Of a DNA stretch of 64,000 bases, positions 14,950 to 62,115 are shown one piece after another. Position 1 is the first letter of the stretch. Every line of letters starts with the position of its first letter. The stretch covers positions 77,963 to 141,962 of the forward strand of contig DAISWO010000002.1 in the NCBI GenBank assembly GCA_036826295.1, given 5' to 3'. The notes under the pieces were generated by a model, which did no database searches, was not told the origin of the DNA, and was given only the letters and a program-made list of their open reading frames with translations. Both the position numbers and the translations under genes were made by a program. This DNA comes from Candidatus Saccharimonadota bacterium (GTDB lineage: Bacteria; Patescibacteriota; Saccharimonadia; Saccharimonadales; JAGQNJ01).

Positions 14950-15026
14950 GCCGCCTTAGCTCAGTTGGTTAGAGCGACGGTTTTGTAAACCGTAGGTCGT
15001 CGGTTCGAATCCGACAGGCGGCTCCA
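14950..15026 (+). tRNA. tRNA-Thr (anticodon UGU), CCA encoded
   Basis: Hand-folded cloverleaf: GCCGCCT/AGGCGGC acceptor, anticodon arm ACGGT-TTTGTAA-ACCGT, T arm GTCGG-TTCGAAT-CCGAC; 77 nt. Confidence 0.93.
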
Positions 15027-15091
15027 CAGAAAGCATCATGACAGTTTACTGTTATTGTGCTTTCGAGGAAGCAACTGCAGCCCGAAGGGCT

Positions 15092-15104
15092 ACAGGCGGC
15101 TCCA
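15092..15104 (+). repeat. 13-nt direct duplicate of the tRNA-Thr 3' end (ACAGGCGGCTCCA) behind a mini-hairpin
   Basis: Identical to 15014-15026; preceded by GCAGCCC-gaa-GGGCT-a-C hairpin. Confidence 0.85.
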
Positions 15105-15302: not shown

Positions 15303-15388
15303 GCAGGGTTAGTGAAGCGGTCAAACACGGCAGACTGTAAATCTGCTGGCTTATGCCTTCGTAGGTTCGAATCCTACACCCTGCACCA
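15303..15388 (+). tRNA. tRNA-Tyr (anticodon GUA), long variable arm, CCA encoded
   Basis: GCAGGGT/ACCCTGC acceptor, GCAGA-CTGTAAA-TCTGC, variable arm TGGCTTATGCCTTC, GTAGG-TTCGAAT-CCTAC; 86 nt. Confidence 0.92.
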
Positions 15389-15431
15389 TCCTTCGTCGCT
15401 ATGTTTCTATACATAGCTATGAAGGATTTTT
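15388..15431 (+). terminator. tRNA-trailer hairpin/terminator (family copy 1)
   Basis: ATCCTTC-gtc-GCTATG..CATAGC-tat-GAAGGAT + TTTTT, starting in the CCA end. Confidence 0.7.
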
Positions 15432-15436
15432 AGTTT

Positions 15437-15488
15437 GTCGTAGGGTTCGAACCGACAGGCGAAAACAGTTGGGGGCTGTTTGAGTTAT
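15437..15488 (+). repeat. T-arm-like mini-element (tRNA-Thr 3'-half-like GTCG..GGTTCGAACCGACAGGCG + AAACAG/CTGTTT hairpin + GAGTTAT)
   Basis: Near-copy at 62061-62106, relatives at 61250-61290 and 56541-56598. Confidence 0.75.
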
Positions 15489-15533
15489 CCATATTTCTAG
15501 CGAGATACTTTAGTTCTCGAGCGGATTAATCAA

Positions 15534-15556
15534 TTCGAATCCTACACCCTGCACCA
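15534..15556 (+). repeat. 23-nt exact duplicate of the tRNA-Tyr 3' end (TTCGAATCCTACACCCTGCACCA)
   Basis: Identical to 15366-15388; followed by a weak hairpin and T-run (15565-15590). Confidence 0.9.
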
Positions 15557-19581: not shown

Positions 19582-19658
19582 TGGCAGGGGTGGAGGGACT
19601 TGAACCCGCGACCTTCGGTTTTGGAGACCGACGCTCTAGCCAGCTGAGCTACACCCCT
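19582..19658 (-). tRNA. tRNA-Trp (anticodon CCA), CCA end encoded; one C-U mismatch in T stem
   Basis: Reverse complement AGGGGTG TA GCTC AGCTGGCT AGAGC G TCGGT CTCCAAA ACCGA AGGTC GCGGG TTCAAGT CCCTC CACCCCT G CCA. Confidence 0.88.
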
Positions 19659-19785
19659 ATACGGCTAATTGATAATTAAAGGTTCAAGTCCGACTTGGTC
19701 ACATTCTGCGACCCCGAAACTTTCATACTCTAAGCATAGCTTATAATCTGAAAGATTTCCTTGCGAAATGCCACAGGCATTTCTC

Positions 19786-19845
19786 ACCCGCGACCTTCGG
19801 TTCTAGCGACCGACGTTTCACACCAACTGAGCTACACCCCTATAC
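19786..19845 (-). pseudogene. partial, diverged duplicate of the tRNA-Trp 5' two-thirds (acceptor, D and anticodon arms; no T arm)
   Basis: 17-nt and 18-nt blocks identical to 19604-19620 and 19645-19662; anticodon-loop equivalent reads CGCTAGA (CUA); D stem not pairable. Confidence 0.8.
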
Positions 19846-30845: not shown

Positions 30846-31163
30846 GTGTTAGCCGTTCGAGGGGTTAGTTTTGAAGAGCGAGAACGCATAGCCCAAGAGT
30901 TGGCCCAATTTATGATAGGTGGTTTTAGCGCAGAGCAGCTCATTATAGCGACTTCAGCCATCGATCAACTCTATTCCAGAGCATCCGCAGGTAAAAATTA
31001 CACGCATTCTGAAGCAGATGTTTTTGCTAGAGCCGCAATATTTGCAGTGCAAACTCGAGGTATACCCGAACAAGGCTTAATAGTCGATAAGATCAAACGA
31101 AATCGTAATAGATCGCTAGGCAAACCAGGCAAAGCCGAAGTTCAAGAGTTGCAAAACATTTGA
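30846..31163 (+). CDS. hypothetical protein (105 aa from GTG; frame also open from ATT 30795, 6 nt after GAAGGAG)
   Basis: ORF; start codon uncertain. Confidence 0.4.
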   Translation: MLAVRGVSFEERERIAQELAQFMIGGFSAEQLIIATSAIDQLYSRASAGKNYTHSEADVFARAAIFAVQTRGIPEQGLIVDKIKRNRNRSLGKPGKAEVQELQNI

Positions 31164-31911: not shown

Positions 31912-32334
31912 ATGAGCGAAGAAGTAAATAAGAGCGAAGATAAAAAAGTAGAGACTCCAAAAGAGTTCGAAAAACTAGTTTCAGAACTAGACAAAATGTC
32001 AGCACTAGAAATTAGCAAATTTGTTAAGTTTCTAGAAGAGTATTGGGGCGTAAGTGCAGCAGCACCAGCAGTAGCTATGGCAGCAGCACCAGCAGGCGGT
32101 GACGCACCAGCAGAAGAAGAAAAATCTGAGTACGACGTTATTCTAAAAGACGCAGGCGCACAGAAAGTTGCAGTTATTAAAGCTGTTAAAGATATAACTG
32201 GCCTTGGTCTTGGCGAAGCAAAAGCAGTTGTTGACGGTGCTCCAAAACCAGTACTAGAAAAAGCTAAAAAAGAAGACGCTGATAACGCTAAAAAAGCATT
32301 GGAAGATGCTGGCGCAACAGTAGAACTAGCTTAA
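31912..32334 (+). CDS. rplL: 50S ribosomal protein L7/L12
   Basis: Ala-rich hinge [15 protein letters not shown]; [28 protein letters not shown]. Confidence 0.95.
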
Positions 32335-32356
32335 ACCCGATCAGAAAAACTCGATT

Positions 32357-32845
32357 ATGGTAAGACGACATAAATTAGCAGCAATTGGATTTAGTCTTGC
32401 TTTAACAGCTGGTAGTTGCTCTAGTGGCGAAGGATTACCTGCAGCTGAAACTCAACCGGCCCCTACTGAGGGCAGGAGTCTATTTGACCCGCTATACACG
32501 GCGGGTTGTGTTGCTGATGTGGTCGGAGACTTAACTTTATCGAATTTCGGCCTCTTAAAAGCCGAAGACGATCTAGTAGGTGAGTCGAATGGACAAGTTA
32601 TCTACAGAGCTGCAAGAGAGCTAGCAACACCTTTATGTGGGCTTGTCTATGCTGATCCCGACCATCGCGATATTCACTTATCTCTAGAGTCTGCCGATTG
32701 CATAAATTTTCAAGATAGGGCAGCGGCTGTGATTATAGCAACGGTCGTCGAAAACAATACTGAGGAAAGCTTTCCTGCTGTACTGGGTCAAGAAATAGCG
32801 TTCCCTGAAGCTAGCTTTGGCGAACCGCGCTGCAACAGCCAATAG
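32357..32845 (+). CDS. putative lipoprotein (162 aa) on a visibly GC-richer insert
   Basis: MVRRHKLAAIGFSLALTAGSCSSGEG signal/lipobox-like; bracketed by the rplL 3'-end duplication. Confidence 0.55.
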   Translation: MVRRHKLAAIGFSLALTAGSCSSGEGLPAAETQPAPTEGRSLFDPLYTAGCVADVVGDLTLSNFGLLKAEDDLVGESNGQVIYRAARELATPLCGLVYADPDHRDIHLSLESADCINFQDRAAAVIIATVVENNTEESFPAVLGQEIAFPEASFGEPRCNSQ

Positions 32846-32914
32846 ATTATGCGTGTTTCTACGGTGAGTTTTTTATACCATGTTTTTAGCTGTAACCCAT
32901 TTCAACCCTTCATT

Positions 32915-32967
32915 GATAACGCTAAAAAAGCATTGGAAGATGCTGGCGCAACAGTAGAACTAGCTTA
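32915..32967 (+). repeat. 53-nt exact duplicate of the rplL 3' end (32281-32333); here ends in TAG instead of TAA
   Basis: GATAACGCTAAAAAAGCATTGGAAGATGCTGGCGCAACAGTAGAACTAGCTTA occurs twice. Confidence 0.92.
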
Positions 32968-33096
32968 GTTTTTAGATAAAATCAGTAAAACAACCAAAAA
33001 GTTGTCCACAGGTTTTTTGACTATTACTATCATTAATGATATTTTAATGGTAACAGTACTGCAATAATAAAAAGTACGTGTAAAGAGACAAACAAA

Positions 33097-33606
33097 ATGG
33101 CGGATGTATCAGATAAACAAATAAAAAGATTAAAAATACTACTTCAAGAGTCGGAGACGAGTCTAGCGGCGGCTAAAGAATTGTTAGTCAGTCTTATAGG
33201 CGACGATGACAGTGCGCCAGTTATTCCTAGCGAAGATATAGCTGGAAAGATCATTGAAGGAGTTTTTGACGGGCAAAACATGGTCGGAAGTGACGGCAAG
33301 ACATATCCAGTGCCAGCTAACTACGCATCAAAGTCAAAACTAGTAGAGGGTGACATCCTAAAGCTTACAATCGCTGACGACGGAGCATTTCTTTACAAGC
33401 AAATTGGCCCAGTGGCTAGAACCCAAAAAGTCGGAACCCTAGTCATGGAGAGCGGCCATTACTTTGTAAATGTCGATAAGCAAAAATACCGCGTACTTCT
33501 CGCTAGCGTTACCTACTTCAAAGCAAAACCGGGTGATCAAGTCAGTATCAACGTTCCTGAAAGCAACGATAACGCCGAATGGGCCGCACTCGAAGCCGCA
33601 CTATAA
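33097..33606 (+). CDS. hypothetical protein (169 aa)
   Basis: ORF only. Confidence 0.55.
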   Translation: MADVSDKQIKRLKILLQESETSLAAAKELLVSLIGDDDSAPVIPSEDIAGKIIEGVFDGQNMVGSDGKTYPVPANYASKSKLVEGDILKLTIADDGAFLYKQIGPVARTQKVGTLVMESGHYFVNVDKQKYRVLLASVTYFKAKPGDQVSINVPESNDNAEWAALEAAL

Positions 33607-49559: not shown

Positions 49560-50423
49560 ATGGGGCAGAAAATTCTTGAAGGTATTATAAAAAAAGCATA
49601 TTTTTCGGATAAGGGTTTTGTGCTTTTTAAAGATAATTCTATTGAATTACTCCAGAAAATCCCTGAAAACAGTATTGATATGATTTTTGCGGATCCTCCA
49701 TATAATCTATCAAATGGTGGTTTTACTGTACACGCCGGCAAAATGGTAAGTGTGAATAAAGGCGAATGGGATAAGAGTAAGGGGCTAAAAGCAGATTTTG
49801 ATTTTCATATACGATGGCTCGAGGAATGCTATAGGGTTCTAAAGCCAAATGGCACTATTTGGGTTAGCGGTACGTACCATTCTATATATCAGTGTGGATA
49901 CGCACTACAACTGCTTGGTTATAAAATTTTGAATGACATCGCATGGTTTAAACCAAATGCGTCCCCAAACCTAAGCTGTAGATATTTTACTGCCAGCCAC
50001 GAGACTTTACTGTGGGCAAGAAAAGACCCGAAGGGAAAGCATACTTTCAATTACGAAGTGATGAAAGGCTGGACAGATAACTACAAAAAACCGTTCAAAT
50101 CACCTACAACTGGCAAACAAGAATATATTGAGATTATGCATGAAGCAGGGAAGCAGATGCGCTCCGTGTGGGCCATAGGTACACCAAAACGAGAAGAAAA
50201 GACATTCGGTAAACATCCAACCCAGAAACCCGTAGCACTACTAGAGCGGGTCGTACTCTCTTCTACTAACAAAGGCGACGTAATCTTGGACCCCTTTACT
50301 GGCAGTTCTACAACAGGGATAGTAGCAGCAAAAAACAACAGGAAATTTATTGGAATAGATCTAGACAAAGAATACCTAGAAGTTTCAATAAAGAGATATA
50401 ATCTACTGAAAGCCGTGAAATGA
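49560..50423 (+). CDS. beta-class N6-adenine DNA methyltransferase, DpnA (M2.DpnII)-like, probable GATC specificity
   Basis: DMIFADPPYNLSNGG (motif IV) precedes ILDPFTGSSTTG (motif I). Long collinear similarity to my recollection of DpnA (SPNLSCRYFT, GKHPTQKP). Confidence 0.88.
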   Translation: MGQKILEGIIKKAYFSDKGFVLFKDNSIELLQKIPENSIDMIFADPPYNLSNGGFTVHAGKMVSVNKGEWDKSKGLKADFDFHIRWLEECYRVLKPNGTIWVSGTYHSIYQCGYALQLLGYKILNDIAWFKPNASPNLSCRYFTASHETLLWARKDPKGKHTFNYEVMKGWTDNYKKPFKSPTTGKQEYIEIMHEAGKQMRSVWAIGTPKREEKTFGKHPTQKPVALLERVVLSSTNKGDVILDPFTGSSTTGIVAAKNNRKFIGIDLDKEYLEVSIKRYNLLKAVK

Positions 50424-51280
50424 TTGATAAAGATTTTGATAAACTGGTTTCAACTTTCAAGAGTTCAATTAAAACCTGGGACTATTTTGTAAATTGGGAC
50501 AAAGTTTATTTAAATTCATCGGAACTTGAAATCGCCCTAAACAAGCTAAATTATTTACTCGGCAAGGAAAAGCTCGAAGAAGAGTTTATAAAATTATATG
50601 CTGATAACTCAGATATAGTTAAAGCACTGCCAGCACTATTGGCAATTAGAGAAAAGAAAATTGAGATTTTTGACAAAGCAACTAAAGATTCAGAATTTTT
50701 TAATTTCAATGATCAATCCGCTGGCGCAAAAAAATATTTCGAATTTATTGAGAAATCTGGACTTGCCAAACTTTTTAAAGAAGATGGGGTCAAGAATCTT
50801 GTCGACTATGTATTAGGGGTTGAGGTAGGGCTTGATAGCAATGGCAGAAAAAATAGAGGCGGTACGTTAATGGAAGACATTGTCGGCACTCTCTTAGCGG
50901 ATTTTTGCAAAGATAATGACTTACAACTAATGTCGCAAGCTACTGCAAAGAAAGTTAAAAATATTTGGGATATTAATATAAAAGTTGATAAATCTGCGCG
51001 AAGTTTCGATTTTGCAGTTTATAACCCCAGAAGTAATAATATAAAGTTATTTGAAGTAAATTTCTATAATGGGGGAGGCTCTAAGCTCAAAGCCGTTTGC
51101 GGTGAGTTTCGTAGTTTGTACGATGAGTTAAAGTCTCAAAGCATTGATTTTGTTTGGATTACAGACGGTTTGGGGTGGCATACTACTAAAAAACCACTTG
51201 AAGAAACTTATAATCATAACGAATTTGTCTTTAACCTTACCATGATCGAAAACAATATATTACAGCGTATGGAGTGGTAG
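50420..51280 (+). CDS. type II restriction endonuclease, DpnII/MboI family (GATC)
   Basis: LVDYVLGVEVGLDSNGRKNRGG, EVNFYNGGGSKL, WITDGLGW match remembered R.DpnII blocks; ATGA overlap with the methylase gene. Confidence 0.85.
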   Translation: MIDKDFDKLVSTFKSSIKTWDYFVNWDKVYLNSSELEIALNKLNYLLGKEKLEEEFIKLYADNSDIVKALPALLAIREKKIEIFDKATKDSEFFNFNDQSAGAKKYFEFIEKSGLAKLFKEDGVKNLVDYVLGVEVGLDSNGRKNRGGTLMEDIVGTLLADFCKDNDLQLMSQATAKKVKNIWDINIKVDKSARSFDFAVYNPRSNNIKLFEVNFYNGGGSKLKAVCGEFRSLYDELKSQSIDFVWITDGLGWHTTKKPLEETYNHNEFVFNLTMIENNILQRMEW

Positions 51281-51506
51281 GGGACGGATACTATAAATTA
51301 ACAATACAATTGCCCTTGTATTCTATAAGTTAGTATATTTATCGTTATTCAGAACACATTAGAATGTATATGGAAATGAGAGCGTGGCTATCCACACATA
51401 AAACTGGGACAGTCTATTCAAAACTTCCTATTCATGAATATTGCACATATGAGTCGTTCGTTTGCAACTGGTCATTTTTATGTTCATGTAATACAATTAG
51501 AAAGAT

Positions 51507-53507
51507 ATGTTGTCAGATCTAGACATCAAGCTAACCTATAGCTCTGCATATGATGACATTGTTAACGATTTTTTTATTCCAACTTTAAAACAATCGATTT
51601 CATATGATAGAGTCGCAGGGTATTTTTCTCCGTCAGTGTTAGCACTCGCTTCGGTTGGCATTGCTAGTTTCGTAAAAGAGAAAAAAGGAAAAATTAGAAT
51701 TATATGCAGTGTGAATATTAGCTCTAAGCTTTGCGATGCGATAATGGAAGACGACGGCTCGAAAATATCATTAGACGAAATGTCGGTAACAGAGCTAACT
51801 TCTGAACTCGAGAAAGACTATTATAGACTGTTTGTAAAAATGTTAAATGCAGGAATTATAGAATTAAAGATTGTTGCTATGGATAATGCGTTTAATATTT
51901 TTCATTCAAAAATTGGCATATTAAAAGATTCAGCTGGAAATGCCGTTTCTTTTGTCGGTTCGGTTAATGAAACATCAAACGCGTGGCAAGGAAATATAGA
52001 GGATTATCCAACTTTTACATCCTGGCGTCCTGGCGGGCAAGAATATATAGATAAATATATGTCAATATTTGAAGCATACTGGAATGGGGACATACCTAGA
52101 TCTACCACATTCAGCCTCAGTAAATCAGTGATTAACCGCATCCAAGAAATTTCAGGTGCTAACCAATTTGAGACCACTGAATTAGTTAAAAAAATCGAGA
52201 GCAAGTTGGTTGAAGAGAAAAAGAAACCCTATAAATATCAATTGAAAGCAATCGAGAACTGGAAAAATGCAAATTATAACGGGATATTTGCAATGGCAAC
52301 AGGGACCGGAAAAACATTTACGGCACTATGCGGATTAAAAGATTATTTCTTATCATCCGACGTCAATGTTGCTATCGTTGTCGTGCCACTAGCGCAACTA
52401 GTGTATCAATGGGTGGAGGAGATTAAAGACCATGAATTTTTCGCTAAAGCAAATATAATTATGGCACCATACGCTAGAGACTGGAAAAAAACAATAAAAG
52501 ATGAGCTATTCTACAATAGCGGGGGCAATAATTTAATCGTGGTCACTACTTATTCAACGTTTTTCACGGAAGATTTCATAAAAATCTTTAAGAGCTACGG
52601 TAAGACAACAATGCTGATAGCTGATGAGGTACACAACGTTGCTGGTGGCGCTAGACTTGAACATTCTGACTTTATATCAGAATTTCATTCAAAGTTGGGG
52701 TTAAGTGCGACACCGTTAAGCATTTGGTCAGAAGATAATTCTAATCAAATGATTGATTTGTTTGGGGGTGTGGTATATGAATACAGCTTAGAAAAGGCAT
52801 TGAAAAAGAATGATCTTACAAATTTTGATTATGAATACTTTGAAGTTCCACTGACTCAGCAGGAGTTTGAAGAGTATGTAGACCTATCGAAAAAAATATA
52901 TCCAAAAACAAACGAAGACAAAAAATTATCTGGAACAAGTGCAGAAATAAAAAGAGCAAACATAAAGAAGAATGCAGAGCAAAAAGTTTTAATGCTCGAA
53001 AAAAAACTTGCAACGCATAGTTTTGACATTAAAAAAACTTTGATTTACGCAAACGATCAAATTCAATTAGATAAAATACAAAAAATGATGGATGTCCATG
53101 GTCTAAAAACAAGTAGATTTACCGGTGAAGAGAAAAACCCAGTATTAAGAAAAAGCATTATCGAAAACCTCGAAGATGAGATATATGATGCAGTAGTTGC
53201 AATCAAATGTCTAGATGAAGGAGTAGATATTCGTTCAGCCCAAACCGCCTACTTAATTTCGAATAATACGGAGCCAAGGGAGTACACTCAACGATTAGGG
53301 AGAGTACTTAGGAAGTGTGAAGGTAAGAAGCTATCTTATGTAGTGGATTTTGTTGTTGTGCCCCCCGAGTCGTTTCGAGACAATAAATACGGAAAGCAAT
53401 TAGTTAAAAATGAACTAAAAAGAGTCGGTTTCTTCTCTGATCTTGCATCGAATAGTTCGGATGTTGCGGGTCATTTAATTGATACTAAACTAAAATACGG
53501 TATATAA
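51507..53507 (+). CDS. HKD(PLD)-family nuclease fused to SF2 (ResIII/DEAH-type) helicase
   Basis: FHSKIGILKD..GSVNETSNAW; helicase motifs AMATGTGKT, IADEVHN, SATP, QRLGRVLR. Confidence 0.85.
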   Translation: MLSDLDIKLTYSSAYDDIVNDFFIPTLKQSISYDRVAGYFSPSVLALASVGIASFVKEKKGKIRIICSVNISSKLCDAIMEDDGSKISLDEMSVTELTSELEKDYYRLFVKMLNAGIIELKIVAMDNAFNIFHSKIGILKDSAGNAVSFVGSVNETSNAWQGNIEDYPTFTSWRPGGQEYIDKYMSIFEAYWNGDIPRSTTFSLSKSVINRIQEISGANQFETTELVKKIESKLVEEKKKPYKYQLKAIENWKNANYNGIFAMATGTGKTFTALCGLKDYFLSSDVNVAIVVVPLAQLVYQWVEEIKDHEFFAKANIIMAPYARDWKKTIKDELFYNSGGNNLIVVTTYSTFFTEDFIKIFKSYGKTTMLIADEVHNVAGGARLEHSDFISEFHSKLGLSATPLSIWSEDNSNQMIDLFGGVVYEYSLEKALKKNDLTNFDYEYFEVPLTQQEFEEYVDLSKKIYPKTNEDKKLSGTSAEIKRANIKKNAEQKVLMLEKKLATHSFDIKKTLIYANDQIQLDKIQKMMDVHGLKTSRFTGEEKNPVLRKSIIENLEDEIYDAVVAIKCLDEGVDIRSAQTAYLISNNTEPREYTQRLGRVLRKCEGKKLSYVVDFVVVPPESFRDNKYGKQLVKNELKRVGFFSDLASNSSDVAGHLIDTKLKYGI

Positions 53508-53529
53508 TGCAAGATATTAAGGTTAGGAT

Positions 53530-53712
53530 ATGAGCACAACGATCAATAAGACAATACTTGCACAGATTGACTCCTCTAATTATTCGGACGAGGTAAAGTA
53601 CCTTGTTACTCAATTTATCCAGAAGGAAAAAGAACATTTTGAATCTCATCTAGATTTTGCAAAAGAACTTGATAAATTAATTAAAGTTGTCACAGATGAA
53701 AAGTTTAAATAG
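53530..53712 (+). CDS. small hypothetical protein (60 aa) of the defence operon
   Basis: ORF with AGGTTAGGA SD-like sequence; 3' end overlaps the ATPase start. Confidence 0.45.
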   Translation: MSTTINKTILAQIDSSNYSDEVKYLVTQFIQKEKEHFESHLDFAKELDKLIKVVTDEKFK

Positions 53713-55597
53713 CATACGAATAAAAAACTTTATGTGTTACGAAGATCAAACTATTGATTTTGAAAAAGATATTGGTCTATATTTGATTACTGGCGATAAC
53801 AACGCTGGTAAATCAACGATTTTTAACGCCATTAGCTGGTGCTTTTTCGAGAAAACTCCCTTCAGAAAACCAGGAGACGATATAGATATTGAGTTCTCGG
53901 GTAAATTAAAAGGTGCACCTACAGAAATCGAAGTACGCTTCACGCTGGACAACAATAAATTTTCAATATTTAGAAAGCTCGGCGGGTTGAATGGTTCGAA
54001 GCAAGTAGTGTCAAGTGTTAGTAAGAGCGGCGGTCTACAACCCATTTATTTTCATGCCGACGATTTAATATCGAAATTTTTACCAGAAAATATTAAGCAT
54101 TTATTTATGTTTGATGGTGAGATGATTAAGAATTTGTTTGACGATGATACAAGAGAAGGATTAAAAAACAGCATAAAATACATTAGCGACATAAACGTGC
54201 TAGAGCGTGCGAACCGTCATATAAGTAGTGAAGCTACCAAACTTTTAAAAAAAACCACCACAGATCGGAAGCAGTCTGAGCAGATCGATCAATTAGAGTC
54301 GACAATAGATAACAACAACACAAGAATTGAAGATTTTAAGAAAAAAGTCTCAGAGAAAAATAAAAGGATAAATGAGAATAAACAACGCTTGGATGATTTG
54401 GACGAACGGATAGAGAAAAACAAAGGTTATGAAGATCTATTGGCTATAAAAAATCGGAGCAACAACGAACGCAAAAAATCCGAAGAGTTAATAGAACTTG
54501 AAGAAAAAGATATGTTCAAGATGCTGACAGAGATTACACCCTTCATAATGGTTTACGACAAAATGTCTAAATTAGTAGGCACAATTGACGAAGAGATTGA
54601 CTTACACAATCTCCCAGCACCTATCGAACCATCTGAGCTCAAAAAGTTTGTTAAAGATGGGAAATGTGTTTGTGGGACGAAGGTAGACGAAAAGATAGAA
54701 AAACATTTTTTGAAACTGATCGACGAGTATTCGAAAGTTAATGAGAAGCAATATATTGTAGACATCTCAAAAGACTTCTGGTCTATTACGAATTCCATAA
54801 AGGATCTTACGAGTAAAATTGAGGACTCTCGCTCTAGGATAGCGAAAAATCGGCAATATAAAAACGAGCAAAATCTAGAGTTTGATATGGCGGTAGAAAA
54901 GCTAGATAAAATCCAAAGCATAGATCCCGAAGCTGACAAAGCATCCAGGAGAGATTTAATCGACTTGAATAATAAGTTAACTGAAGAAGTTACTGATTTG
55001 AAAAGAGATATTGTGCAGCTCGAAGCCGATGTGAGAAATGACACTATTACGAGAGATAACATACGACGAGATTTAGCGAAAGCCGAAGGAAAGAATTCTA
55101 AAATTAACCTACTACAAGAAGCAATGCAACTTATTGAGGAAACCATCAAAAAGACAACTCATGACACTAAGAATTTAATCGAAAGAAAGTTTAATGACAC
55201 ATTTTTAGAGCTGTCCGGAACAACAAATTTCACCGGGATAAAAATGGAGGACGACTATTCAATAATGCTAAAAACGGCTGATGGTTCGTACAGGGGGCCA
55301 TCTGGATTTGGGACTGGTTATCATAAAATGCTAGGCCTTTCTATTGTCTTTGCCTTGAGCGAACACCTAGATAATTCAGATTTTCCAATAATGGTTGACA
55401 ACCCTTATGATTCAATCGCTCCAGAGCATAAGCCGACGATTAATAGTTACCTAAAAAAACTCTCGAAAAAGAAACAGGTAGTAGTGACTGCCCTTGATGA
55501 AGAAGAGATGCTTGAAGGATTTAGCAAGGATGATGTAATGCGTCATTTTTTTATATCTCAGAAAAATAATGTTTCTAGTGTGGAGATAAAAAAATGA
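53696..55597 (+). CDS. SMC/Rad50/DndD-like ABC ATPase with long coiled coil (ATG 53696; TTG 53687 alternative)
   Basis: IRIKNFMCYEDQTIDF..ITGDNNAGKST Walker A. About 300 aa K/E/L-rich. CVCG in the middle. C-terminal GFGTGYHKMLGLSIVFAL..FPIMVDNPYDSI (signature/Walker B-like). Confidence 0.8.
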   Translation: MKSLNSIRIKNFMCYEDQTIDFEKDIGLYLITGDNNAGKSTIFNAISWCFFEKTPFRKPGDDIDIEFSGKLKGAPTEIEVRFTLDNNKFSIFRKLGGLNGSKQVVSSVSKSGGLQPIYFHADDLISKFLPENIKHLFMFDGEMIKNLFDDDTREGLKNSIKYISDINVLERANRHISSEATKLLKKTTTDRKQSEQIDQLESTIDNNNTRIEDFKKKVSEKNKRINENKQRLDDLDERIEKNKGYEDLLAIKNRSNNERKKSEELIELEEKDMFKMLTEITPFIMVYDKMSKLVGTIDEEIDLHNLPAPIEPSELKKFVKDGKCVCGTKVDEKIEKHFLKLIDEYSKVNEKQYIVDISKDFWSITNSIKDLTSKIEDSRSRIAKNRQYKNEQNLEFDMAVEKLDKIQSIDPEADKASRRDLIDLNNKLTEEVTDLKRDIVQLEADVRNDTITRDNIRRDLAKAEGKNSKINLLQEAMQLIEETIKKTTHDTKNLIERKFNDTFLELSGTTNFTGIKMEDDYSIMLKTADGSYRGPSGFGTGYHKMLGLSIVFALSEHLDNSDFPIMVDNPYDSIAPEHKPTINSYLKKLSKKKQVVVTALDEEEMLEGFSKDDVMRHFFISQKNNVSSVEIKK

Positions 55598-56427: not shown

Positions 56428-56539
56428 TGGGGTTTGAAATACTTTTTGGTTGTATTGATGCTGATAAAAAATCAATACTACCCTGGGGTTTGAAATACTT
56501 TTTGGTTGTATTGATGCTGATAAAAAATCAATACTACCC
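56428..56539 (+). repeat. perfect tandem duplication of a 56-nt unit, followed by a diverged partial third unit starting at 56540
   Basis: TGGGGTTTGAAATACTTTTTGGTTGTATTGATGCTGATAAAAAATCAATACTACCC x2; each unit contains hairpin GTATTGAT/ATCAATAC. Confidence 0.92.
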
Positions 56540-61196: not shown

Positions 61197-61241
61197 TCCT
61201 TCGTCACTATGCTTTAAACGCATAGTTATGAAGGATTTTTT
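61196..61241 (+). terminator. tRNA-trailer hairpin/terminator (family copy 2)
   Basis: ATCCTTC-gtca-CTATGC..GCATAG-ttat-GAAGGAT + TTTTTT. Confidence 0.7.
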
Positions 61242-61249
61242 CGTTATAT

Positions 61250-61290
61250 GGAGTTGAACCTTGGTCGTAAACAGCCTAGTGGCTGTTTAC
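61250..61290 (+). repeat. T-arm-like mini-element (GGAGTTGAACC + GTAAACAG/CTGTTTAC hairpin)
   Basis: Same architecture as 15443-15488 and 62061-62106. Confidence 0.65.
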
Positions 61291-61354
61291 GTTTTACTCT
61301 CTTGTCTGTATGCGCGTTGGCTACGCCAACTAGTCGCTAACAGATGATGAACAG

Positions 61355-62060: not shown

Positions 62061-62106
62061 GGATTTGAACAGTCAGGCGAAAACAGTCAGGGACTGTTTG
62101 AGTTAT
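62061..62106 (+). repeat. T-arm-like mini-element (GGATTTGAAC-AGTC-AGGCGAAAACAG..CTGTTTGAGTTAT)
   Basis: Close copy of 15443-15488; fills the gap before the deaminase gene. Confidence 0.75.
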
Positions 62107-62115
62107 ACTTATATC

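Follow-up and report, generated by a model that had tools for sequence, protein, structure and literature searches.

In streptococci the 3' end of rplL is a target of the tyrosine integrases of ICEs (integrative and conjugative elements) and IMEs (integrative and mobilizable elements), and the direct repeats of such site-specific elements, which measure 12-54 bp, consist in rplL solely of the gene's precise 3' end (PMC4701971, PMC5357655). Cis-mobilizable elements (CIMEs), which are decayed ICEs or IMEs, have kept their attachment (att) sites and lost their recombination genes; those with cargo measure 1.2-13 kb, the gene-free microCIMEs 130-220 bp, and both form part of composite islands located at the rpmG, rpsI, fda and rplL 3' ends (PMC7563491). 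Here, a 64-kb stretch of contig DAISWO010000002.1 was analysed, which belongs to a Saccharimonadales (Saccharibacteria) metagenome-assembled genome (MAG) and is referred to as a whole as the window. It contains a 580-nt insert between two copies of the 3' end of rplL, the gene encoding ribosomal protein L7/L12. The probability that this insert is a minimal CIME-like islet, decayed or non-autonomous, at an attachment site formed by the rplL 3' end is put at roughly one in two.

Like the streptococcal CIMEs and microCIMEs (PMC7563491; PMC5357655), the window insert is bounded by att-like direct repeats, carries cargo only (a single orphan open reading frame, ORF) without genes for an integrase, relaxase, coupling protein or type IV secretion system, lies at the 3' end of a housekeeping gene that is left intact, and is polymorphic between strains. 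It differs from them in its size, 580 nt with one gene falling between the microCIMEs and the classical CIMEs, in being solitary rather than in tandem with a functional ICE or IME, and in its saccharibacterial host, where no cognate integrase or parent element was seen and an origin by deletion is presumed. The target gene, the sublocation and the composition of the repeat, i.e. the exact rplL 3' end, are shared with ICEs of the ICESa2603/Tn5252 type and with IMEs of the Tyr_3 family; those elements, however, measure 10-90 kb and encode a tyrosine integrase, which the window insert does not. There is no sequence relationship to any of these elements, and the att sequence differs because rplL itself differs.

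The duplicated rplL terminus and its empty sites

rplL is intact in the window (31912..32334, forward strand, 140 aa) and matches the Pfam domains Ribosomal_L12 (6.9e-27) and Ribosomal_L12_N (3.7e-14). Its end, comprising the last 17 codons and the TA of the stop codon, forms the first, attL-like copy of an exact direct repeat with a maximal length of 54 nt (32280-32333, forward strand). The second, attR-like copy (32914-32967, same strand) is 100% identical and is followed by G, giving a TAG stop codon at 32966-32968. The repeat is precisely the rplL 3' end and terminates within the stop codon, which reads TAA via copy 1 and TAG via copy 2. An earlier note on this DNA had reported the duplication as 53 nt, and this 53-mer does occur exactly twice in the window (32281-32333 and 32915-32967), while none of 100 dinucleotide-preserving shuffles yielded any match to it; the additional nucleotide is a T common to both copies at the left. 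The repeat ends are sharp, with c (copy 1) against t (copy 2) as the left flank and A against G as the right flank. The same note had placed 581 nt with a single ORF between the copies; the ORF (32357..32845, forward strand, 162 aa) was recovered, and with the 54-nt repeat the spacing is 580 nt (32334-32913, forward strand). The insert showed no DNA or tblastx similarity within the window or in 80 related loci, and neither terminal inverted repeats nor terminators were found at its ends. Its non-coding right end (68 nt, 32846..32913, forward strand) folded no better than shuffled sequences (z = +1.07).

The insert was missing from a conspecific contig (L081) and from all relatives examined, which included 80 species-level relatives read from about 390 detected. 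L081, a Logan contig of a near-identical conspecific from a separate run (ERR8482638), is 100% identical to window positions 32159-32333 (175 nt of rplL) and then passes directly into 32968 onwards, with one 54-mer, a TAG stop, no insert and a 129-nt spacer identical to that of the window (32968..33096, forward strand), which was left undisturbed by the insertion. In the closest representative genome (L001, 87% nucleotide identity) one 54-mer is likewise followed directly by the spacer that stands after copy 2 in the window, and the empty single-copy site was also present in 12 contigs of close relatives (L084-L095) and in L104. A scan of JGI metagenomes returned only distant relatives, two of which had readable downstream sequence (L098 and L099); in both the site was empty. 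The search for empty sites that the earlier note had proposed was thereby answered in L081 and about 15 close relatives, each with one 54-mer and the same native downstream sequence, and the view of the locus as an insertion scar with a protein-coding gene as its target was borne out. The relatives do not have this arrangement, as they would after the ancient fixed event that the note had entertained.

Because the single-copy sites show the 54-mer with TAG and this same spacer, comparison of the sequences identifies copy 2 as the native rplL end, and the third base of the stop codon at copy 1, with everything to the right of it, as having come with the insert. The earlier assignment of copy 1, with its TAA, as the real end of rplL is therefore reversed. 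rplL has remained full length despite the insert, the sole change being in the stop codon (TAG to TAA). Sister species differ at 2-4 of the 54 repeat positions and the insert-side copy matches the rplL of the window species exactly, so that cycling of an element within the species fits better than capture of foreign DNA. The identity of the repeats and the existence of a near-identical strain without the insert suggest that the insertion is recent or still reversible.

The same structure could be produced by the assembly if the chromosome were empty and the 580 nt resided on another molecule sharing the 54-mer, such as a small circle or an episome with its attP. For k up to 54, the de Bruijn graph of an empty chromosome with a 634-bp circle is no different from that of the integrated form, the repeat length equals k-1 at k = 55, the genome is a third-party MAG, and the Logan gene index of the same runs did not list the cargo ORF. 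A 54-nt repeat is, however, below ordinary read length and is resolved by assemblers at k ≥ 55, and the overlaps of SPAdes-type assemblers would be 55 nt, not 54. For each of the cargo ORF, rplL and orf169, the next native gene downstream, 3 large contigs are on record, with two or more different lengths among them. Furthermore, a Logan contig of the same strain, assembled independently with k = 31 from run SRR2107211 (L082) and 100% identical to the window over 4,953 nt, has its terminus at window position 32309, exactly k-1 = 30 nt inside the repeat. A unitig must stop where the first k-mer lying wholly within the repeat has two predecessors; therefore, the reads of SRR2107211 hold a second left context of the 54-mer, and the raw-read artefact that the earlier note had named as a possible refutation is contradicted by a read-derived assembly that breaks exactly at the repeat boundary. 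Lastly, a molecule joining the exact rplL 3' end to the ORF would itself be an attP-bearing element. An artefact of this kind is considered highly improbable.

In a second sample (SRR17347195), a Logan contig from a 96.8%-identical strain (L102) starts at the first base of the 54-mer, and its single-copy state matches copy 2, TAG and the native spacer. This start is suggestive of, and not conclusive for, a junction at the left boundary of the repeat in that sample too.

Related scars and possible routes of insertion

A second rplL terminus (GATVELA*, the last 24 nt) was located shortly behind the gene in three further loci. L006 (L006:5376-5454) and its sister species L008 (L008:5373-5451) have a 31-nt insert, and L015 (L015:5367-5478) has a 44-nt insert and a repeat of 34 nt, which reaches 10 nt beyond the stop codon. 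These older scars were found only via cross-species nucleotide queries and a peptide-level scan; with each locus's own rplL end as the nucleotide query, no further copies beyond the window were detected. Window included, rplL-end duplications were present on the forward strand in 4 of 92 loci, against 0 on the reverse strand, in 357 kb. The L006/L008 and L015 scars both begin at the same Gly codon, and the three scar-bearing lineages (window, L006/L008 and L015) are phylogenetically separate, their nearest relatives being scar-free. In each of the older scars it is the displaced copy that matches the functional rplL end of relatives exactly, while the functional copy deviates at synonymous sites or in its final residue, which gives the working gene end an imported look.

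In E. coli, the icd gene receives a substitute 3' end from phage 21 or from the e14 element. The rplL locus is comparable in that the element would have brought a replacement gene 3' end and displaced the original as a fragment, and in that the functional ends of L006/L008 and L015 differ synonymously from the displaced ones. It is unlike phage 21 and e14 in that the two copies in the window are identical and the element, which is no prophage, lacks an integrase.

Integrative islands with cargo arrays of the tycheposon type leave duplications of tRNA-gene 3' ends, and the earlier note had likened the rplL scar to those seen at tRNA genes in the window. As a structural parallel this holds. Exact 3'-end copies of tRNA-Thr(TGT) (13 nt, 15092-15104, region 14950-15104) and tRNA-Tyr (23 nt, 15534-15556, region 15303-15556) lie 65-145 nt behind the intact genes, reproducing the order of intact gene, small insert and partial gene copy that is characteristic of tRNA-gene islands and of the rplL locus. 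A partial copy of tRNA-Trp (minus strand), covering tRNA positions 1-15 and 26-55, was located at 19786-19841 (region 19582-19841). No recombinase was found near the partial tRNA copies. The rplL locus differs from the tRNA-gene islands in its target, a ribosomal protein gene, and in having no recombinase in the array. Downstream of the tRNA-Tyr and tRNA-Gln genes, a small repeated element was also noted (15443-15497 and 62061-62115, also 61240-61300), with copies 82% identical, which has a tRNA T-arm-like start, GGGTTCGAACC, and then a hairpin, AAAACAG...CTGTTT.

Formally, the insert is flanked by a perfect copy of the target sequence, and a target-site duplication would result if a transposase- or Cas1-like enzyme had made cuts staggered by 54 nt, followed by insertion of the 580 nt and gap repair. 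Insertions of IS1595-family elements into this intergenic region do occur among relatives, with transposase genes directly 3' of rplL that are intact in L074 (L074:580-1434) and fragmented into three ORFs in L015 (L015:5681-6543); the spacer between rplL and orf169 therefore tolerates several kinds of insertion. The target-site duplications known in prokaryotes, however, measure about 2-15 bp, the insert has neither terminal inverted repeats nor a transposase, and the duplication stops exactly at the gene end with a length that varies between events (54, 24 and 34 nt). Such an origin is regarded as barely credible.

Other candidates were tried and rejected. An insertion sequence or transposon does not agree with a duplication of 54 nt rather than 2-15 bp, flanking an insert with no transposase and no terminal inverted repeats. 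An integron gene cassette was rejected on the unstructured 68-nt 3' end and the lack of an integrase among the window ORFs scanned, and a prophage remnant or phage moron on the lack of a PHROG match and of any match in IMG/VR or the phage collection. Viral contigs were searched for an attP with exact and degenerate patterns of the rplL end, and the sole match (L100) was a chance one, lying inside an antisense coding region. An integrase beside rplL was sought in relatives, where the 26 long intervals between rplL and orf169 contain ordinary genes and no integrase, with IS1595 transposase sequences in two of these intervals.

The outcome of the search for recombination machinery weighs against a CIME-like islet. 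No integrase, recombinase or transposase was found by Pfam scan in the insert or in the 54 window ORFs scanned, and none among the 29 gap ORFs scanned from 21 relatives, the IS1595 transposases of L074 and L015 excepted. About 95 loci showed no full-size recombinase-bearing element at rplL, neither the rplL end nor a homolog of the cargo ORF occurred on any viral contig, and searches of the phage and plasmid collections were negative. At the insert, which is in addition smaller than the classical CIMEs described, core-type inverted repeats and arm sites were not demonstrated.

The lack of a recombinase near the site would be explained by the main rival, a recombinase-independent capture after natural transformation, in which the incoming DNA was anchored by homology in the highly conserved rplL. 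This could have occurred by homology-facilitated illegitimate recombination, a process reportedly described by de Vries and Wackernagel in 2002, which pairs a homologous crossover with an illegitimate join located 54 nt upstream of the gene end, or by a single (Campbell) crossover in which RecA acts on a circularised fragment; the gene end is duplicated in both cases. Saccharibacteria are naturally competent and integrate DNA via homologous recombination (PMC10633639). Strain-to-strain recombination also appears active here: L081 differs from the window at only 15 positions, all synonymous and clustered in orf169, within a patch of 268 nt (window 33252-33519, L081:460-727; 5.6%) whose flanks are identical, and which resembles a tract acquired from a diverged strain by homologous recombination. 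The foreign-looking synonymous variants in the functional rplL ends of L006/L008 and L015 are as would be expected if DNA of another lineage had replaced them.

Capture would nevertheless call for a donor end identical over 54 nt, yet adjoined by 580 nt without a relative in the whole clade, and a conspecific donor already carrying the insert could use two-sided homologous recombination, which leaves no duplication. That the two independent older scars start at the same codon is unexpected from illegitimate joins. The left end of the insert was also compared with the rplL-downstream spacer of a related species, of which it might be a relic; GATTAT occurs at the same offset, but the 13/24 matches of which it is part were not significant (P = 0.35 against shuffles), and a derivation of the left end from a homologous spacer was not supported. 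Capture after transformation is accordingly taken to be possible and rather unlikely.

Site-specific integration is preferred because the repeat is the gene end, the gene was rebuilt, the native end was displaced, the sites of sister strains and species are empty and the site has been reused. In favour of a site-specific recombinase acting at the rplL end there are three independent scars, two of them with the same boundary. In the sequence of events proposed for a CIME-like islet, a circular DNA whose attP was a copy of the final 54 nt of rplL would have recombined with the chromosomal rplL end (attB). The recombinase would probably have been of the tyrosine type, its gene either located elsewhere or lost with a since-deleted part of the element. 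rplL would have been rebuilt from the copy of the element, with the stop codon changed from TAG to TAA, and the native end, TAG stop and spacer included, pushed 634 bp downstream. What remains between the att-like repeats of a presumably larger element, reduced by deletion, would be a single orphan gene that has no promoter of its own and probably encodes a lipoprotein or secreted protein, perhaps co-transcribed with rplJL.

A bolder and doubtful proposal is that the Saccharimonadales host an undescribed family of tiny non-autonomous single-gene cassettes, which dock site-specifically at the last rplL codons and are moved in trans by a recombinase whose gene lies elsewhere. The docking site would then be an expression platform, placing promoterless orphan genes for surface proteins behind the strong rplJL promoter, and the short scars of L006/L008 and L015 would be emptied or decayed docking events.

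The cargo gene

The cargo ORF (GenBank HMS23541.1, locus tag PKB09_01925) has an N-terminus reading MVRRHKLAAIGFSLALTAGS followed by C, with a basic n-region (MVRRHK), a hydrophobic core (LAAIGFSLALT) and AGS|C at residues 18-21; the mature part has 4 further Cys. By eye, the lipobox fits the permissive PROSITE-type rule ([AGS] at -1) and not the strict L-[AS]-[GA]-C. On this inspection the product is a putative lipoprotein or secreted protein, and is probably surface-exposed.

No real homolog of the cargo ORF, just the protein itself, was found in 5.8 billion protein clusters and 1.84 billion representatives. A match to P0002 (E = 2e-6) was rejected as spurious because it is a weak match of 45 residues multiplied by eight tandem repeats. 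No family match was obtained in Pfam, PHROGs or NCBIfam, and no match in IMG/VR, the phage collection or the plasmid collection. A single-sequence AlphaFold (AF2) model had a pLDDT of 41 and was unusable.

The earlier note had remarked on the higher GC content of the ORF. In total GC this was confirmed, at 0.472 against a gene mean of 0.410 (sd 0.031), or +2 sd, and is attributable to an amino-acid composition rich in Ala, Gly and Pro. A foreign base composition was ruled out by GC3 (0.340 against a mean of 0.350) and the codon score (0.064 against 0.070), which are at values usual for the genome. With a coding-like gradient of GC1>GC2>GC3 (0.605/0.475/0.340), the ORF looks like a real gene of this kind of organism.

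The ORF starts 22 nt past the rplL stop codon in the same orientation, and no promoter, Shine-Dalgarno sequence or terminator was recognisable between the two. Expression is presumably by read-through from the strong rplJL operon, this being the simplest explanation of the shared direction, the 22-nt gap and the lack of such signals.

The locus in its genome and order

Downstream of the native spacer lies orf169 (33097..33606, forward strand, locus tag PKB09_01930), a conserved gene of unassigned function that stands 3' of rplL in the Saccharimonadales, followed by dnaX and dnaB. The gene order rplJ-rplL-orf169-dnaX was kept in 76 of 80 loci. The earlier note had pointed to the missing rpoB-rpoC continuation; these genes are indeed not downstream of rplL in the window, but given the conserved order their absence is normal throughout the Saccharimonadales and is unconnected to the insert. 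The interval between rplL and orf169 is usually 110-240 nt in relatives and extends to 0.55-4.6 kb in the 26 loci with ordinary genes mentioned above, among which are sigma factors, OmpR-type regulators, patatin, an M20 peptidase, a glycosyltransferase, a NUDIX protein and helicases.

The native spacer of the window contains a DnaA-box-like motif, TTGTCCACA, at 33003-33011 and a sigma-70-like promoter at 33017-33045. Of 76 related loci, 69 have a consensus DnaA box, TTATCCACA, approximately 100 nt upstream of orf169, compared with a background frequency of 0.08 per kb for the motif, and across the order a TTGAC -35 element is found downstream of the conserved box, ahead of orf169-dnaX-dnaB. 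This arrangement suggests control of replication genes by DnaA.

Three further features of the window were noted. Directly upstream of rplJ, the segment 30775-31155 is non-homologous to L001:3631-4242, and a 105-aa orphan ORF with no family match (30846..31163) is found there. A block of low GC (0.34-0.39) at 49560-55597 contains defence-type genes, namely an N6/N4 DNA methylase with a DpnII-type endonuclease, a PLD-nuclease/helicase fusion and an AAA_23/SMC-like ATPase. An intergenic sequence at 56428-56539 is a perfect tandem duplication of a 56-nt unit, the two copies being 100% identical.

Few mobile elements have been described in Saccharibacteria, which have tiny genomes and live on the surface of other bacteria. 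The islet is of a kind already known, found in a phylum in which such elements are barely described, and at this locus a single orphan gene, probably for an envelope protein, has very recently been gained or lost at strain level, at a defined site behind a highly expressed ribosomal operon. If no cognate recombinase exists, it would be a routine remnant of an integrative element. If one does exist, it would account for part of the "horizontally transferred ribosomal protein genes" that were reported from Patescibacteria (PMC12455944), and genetic tools for this now-transformable group could have a natural landing pad in the 54-nt site.

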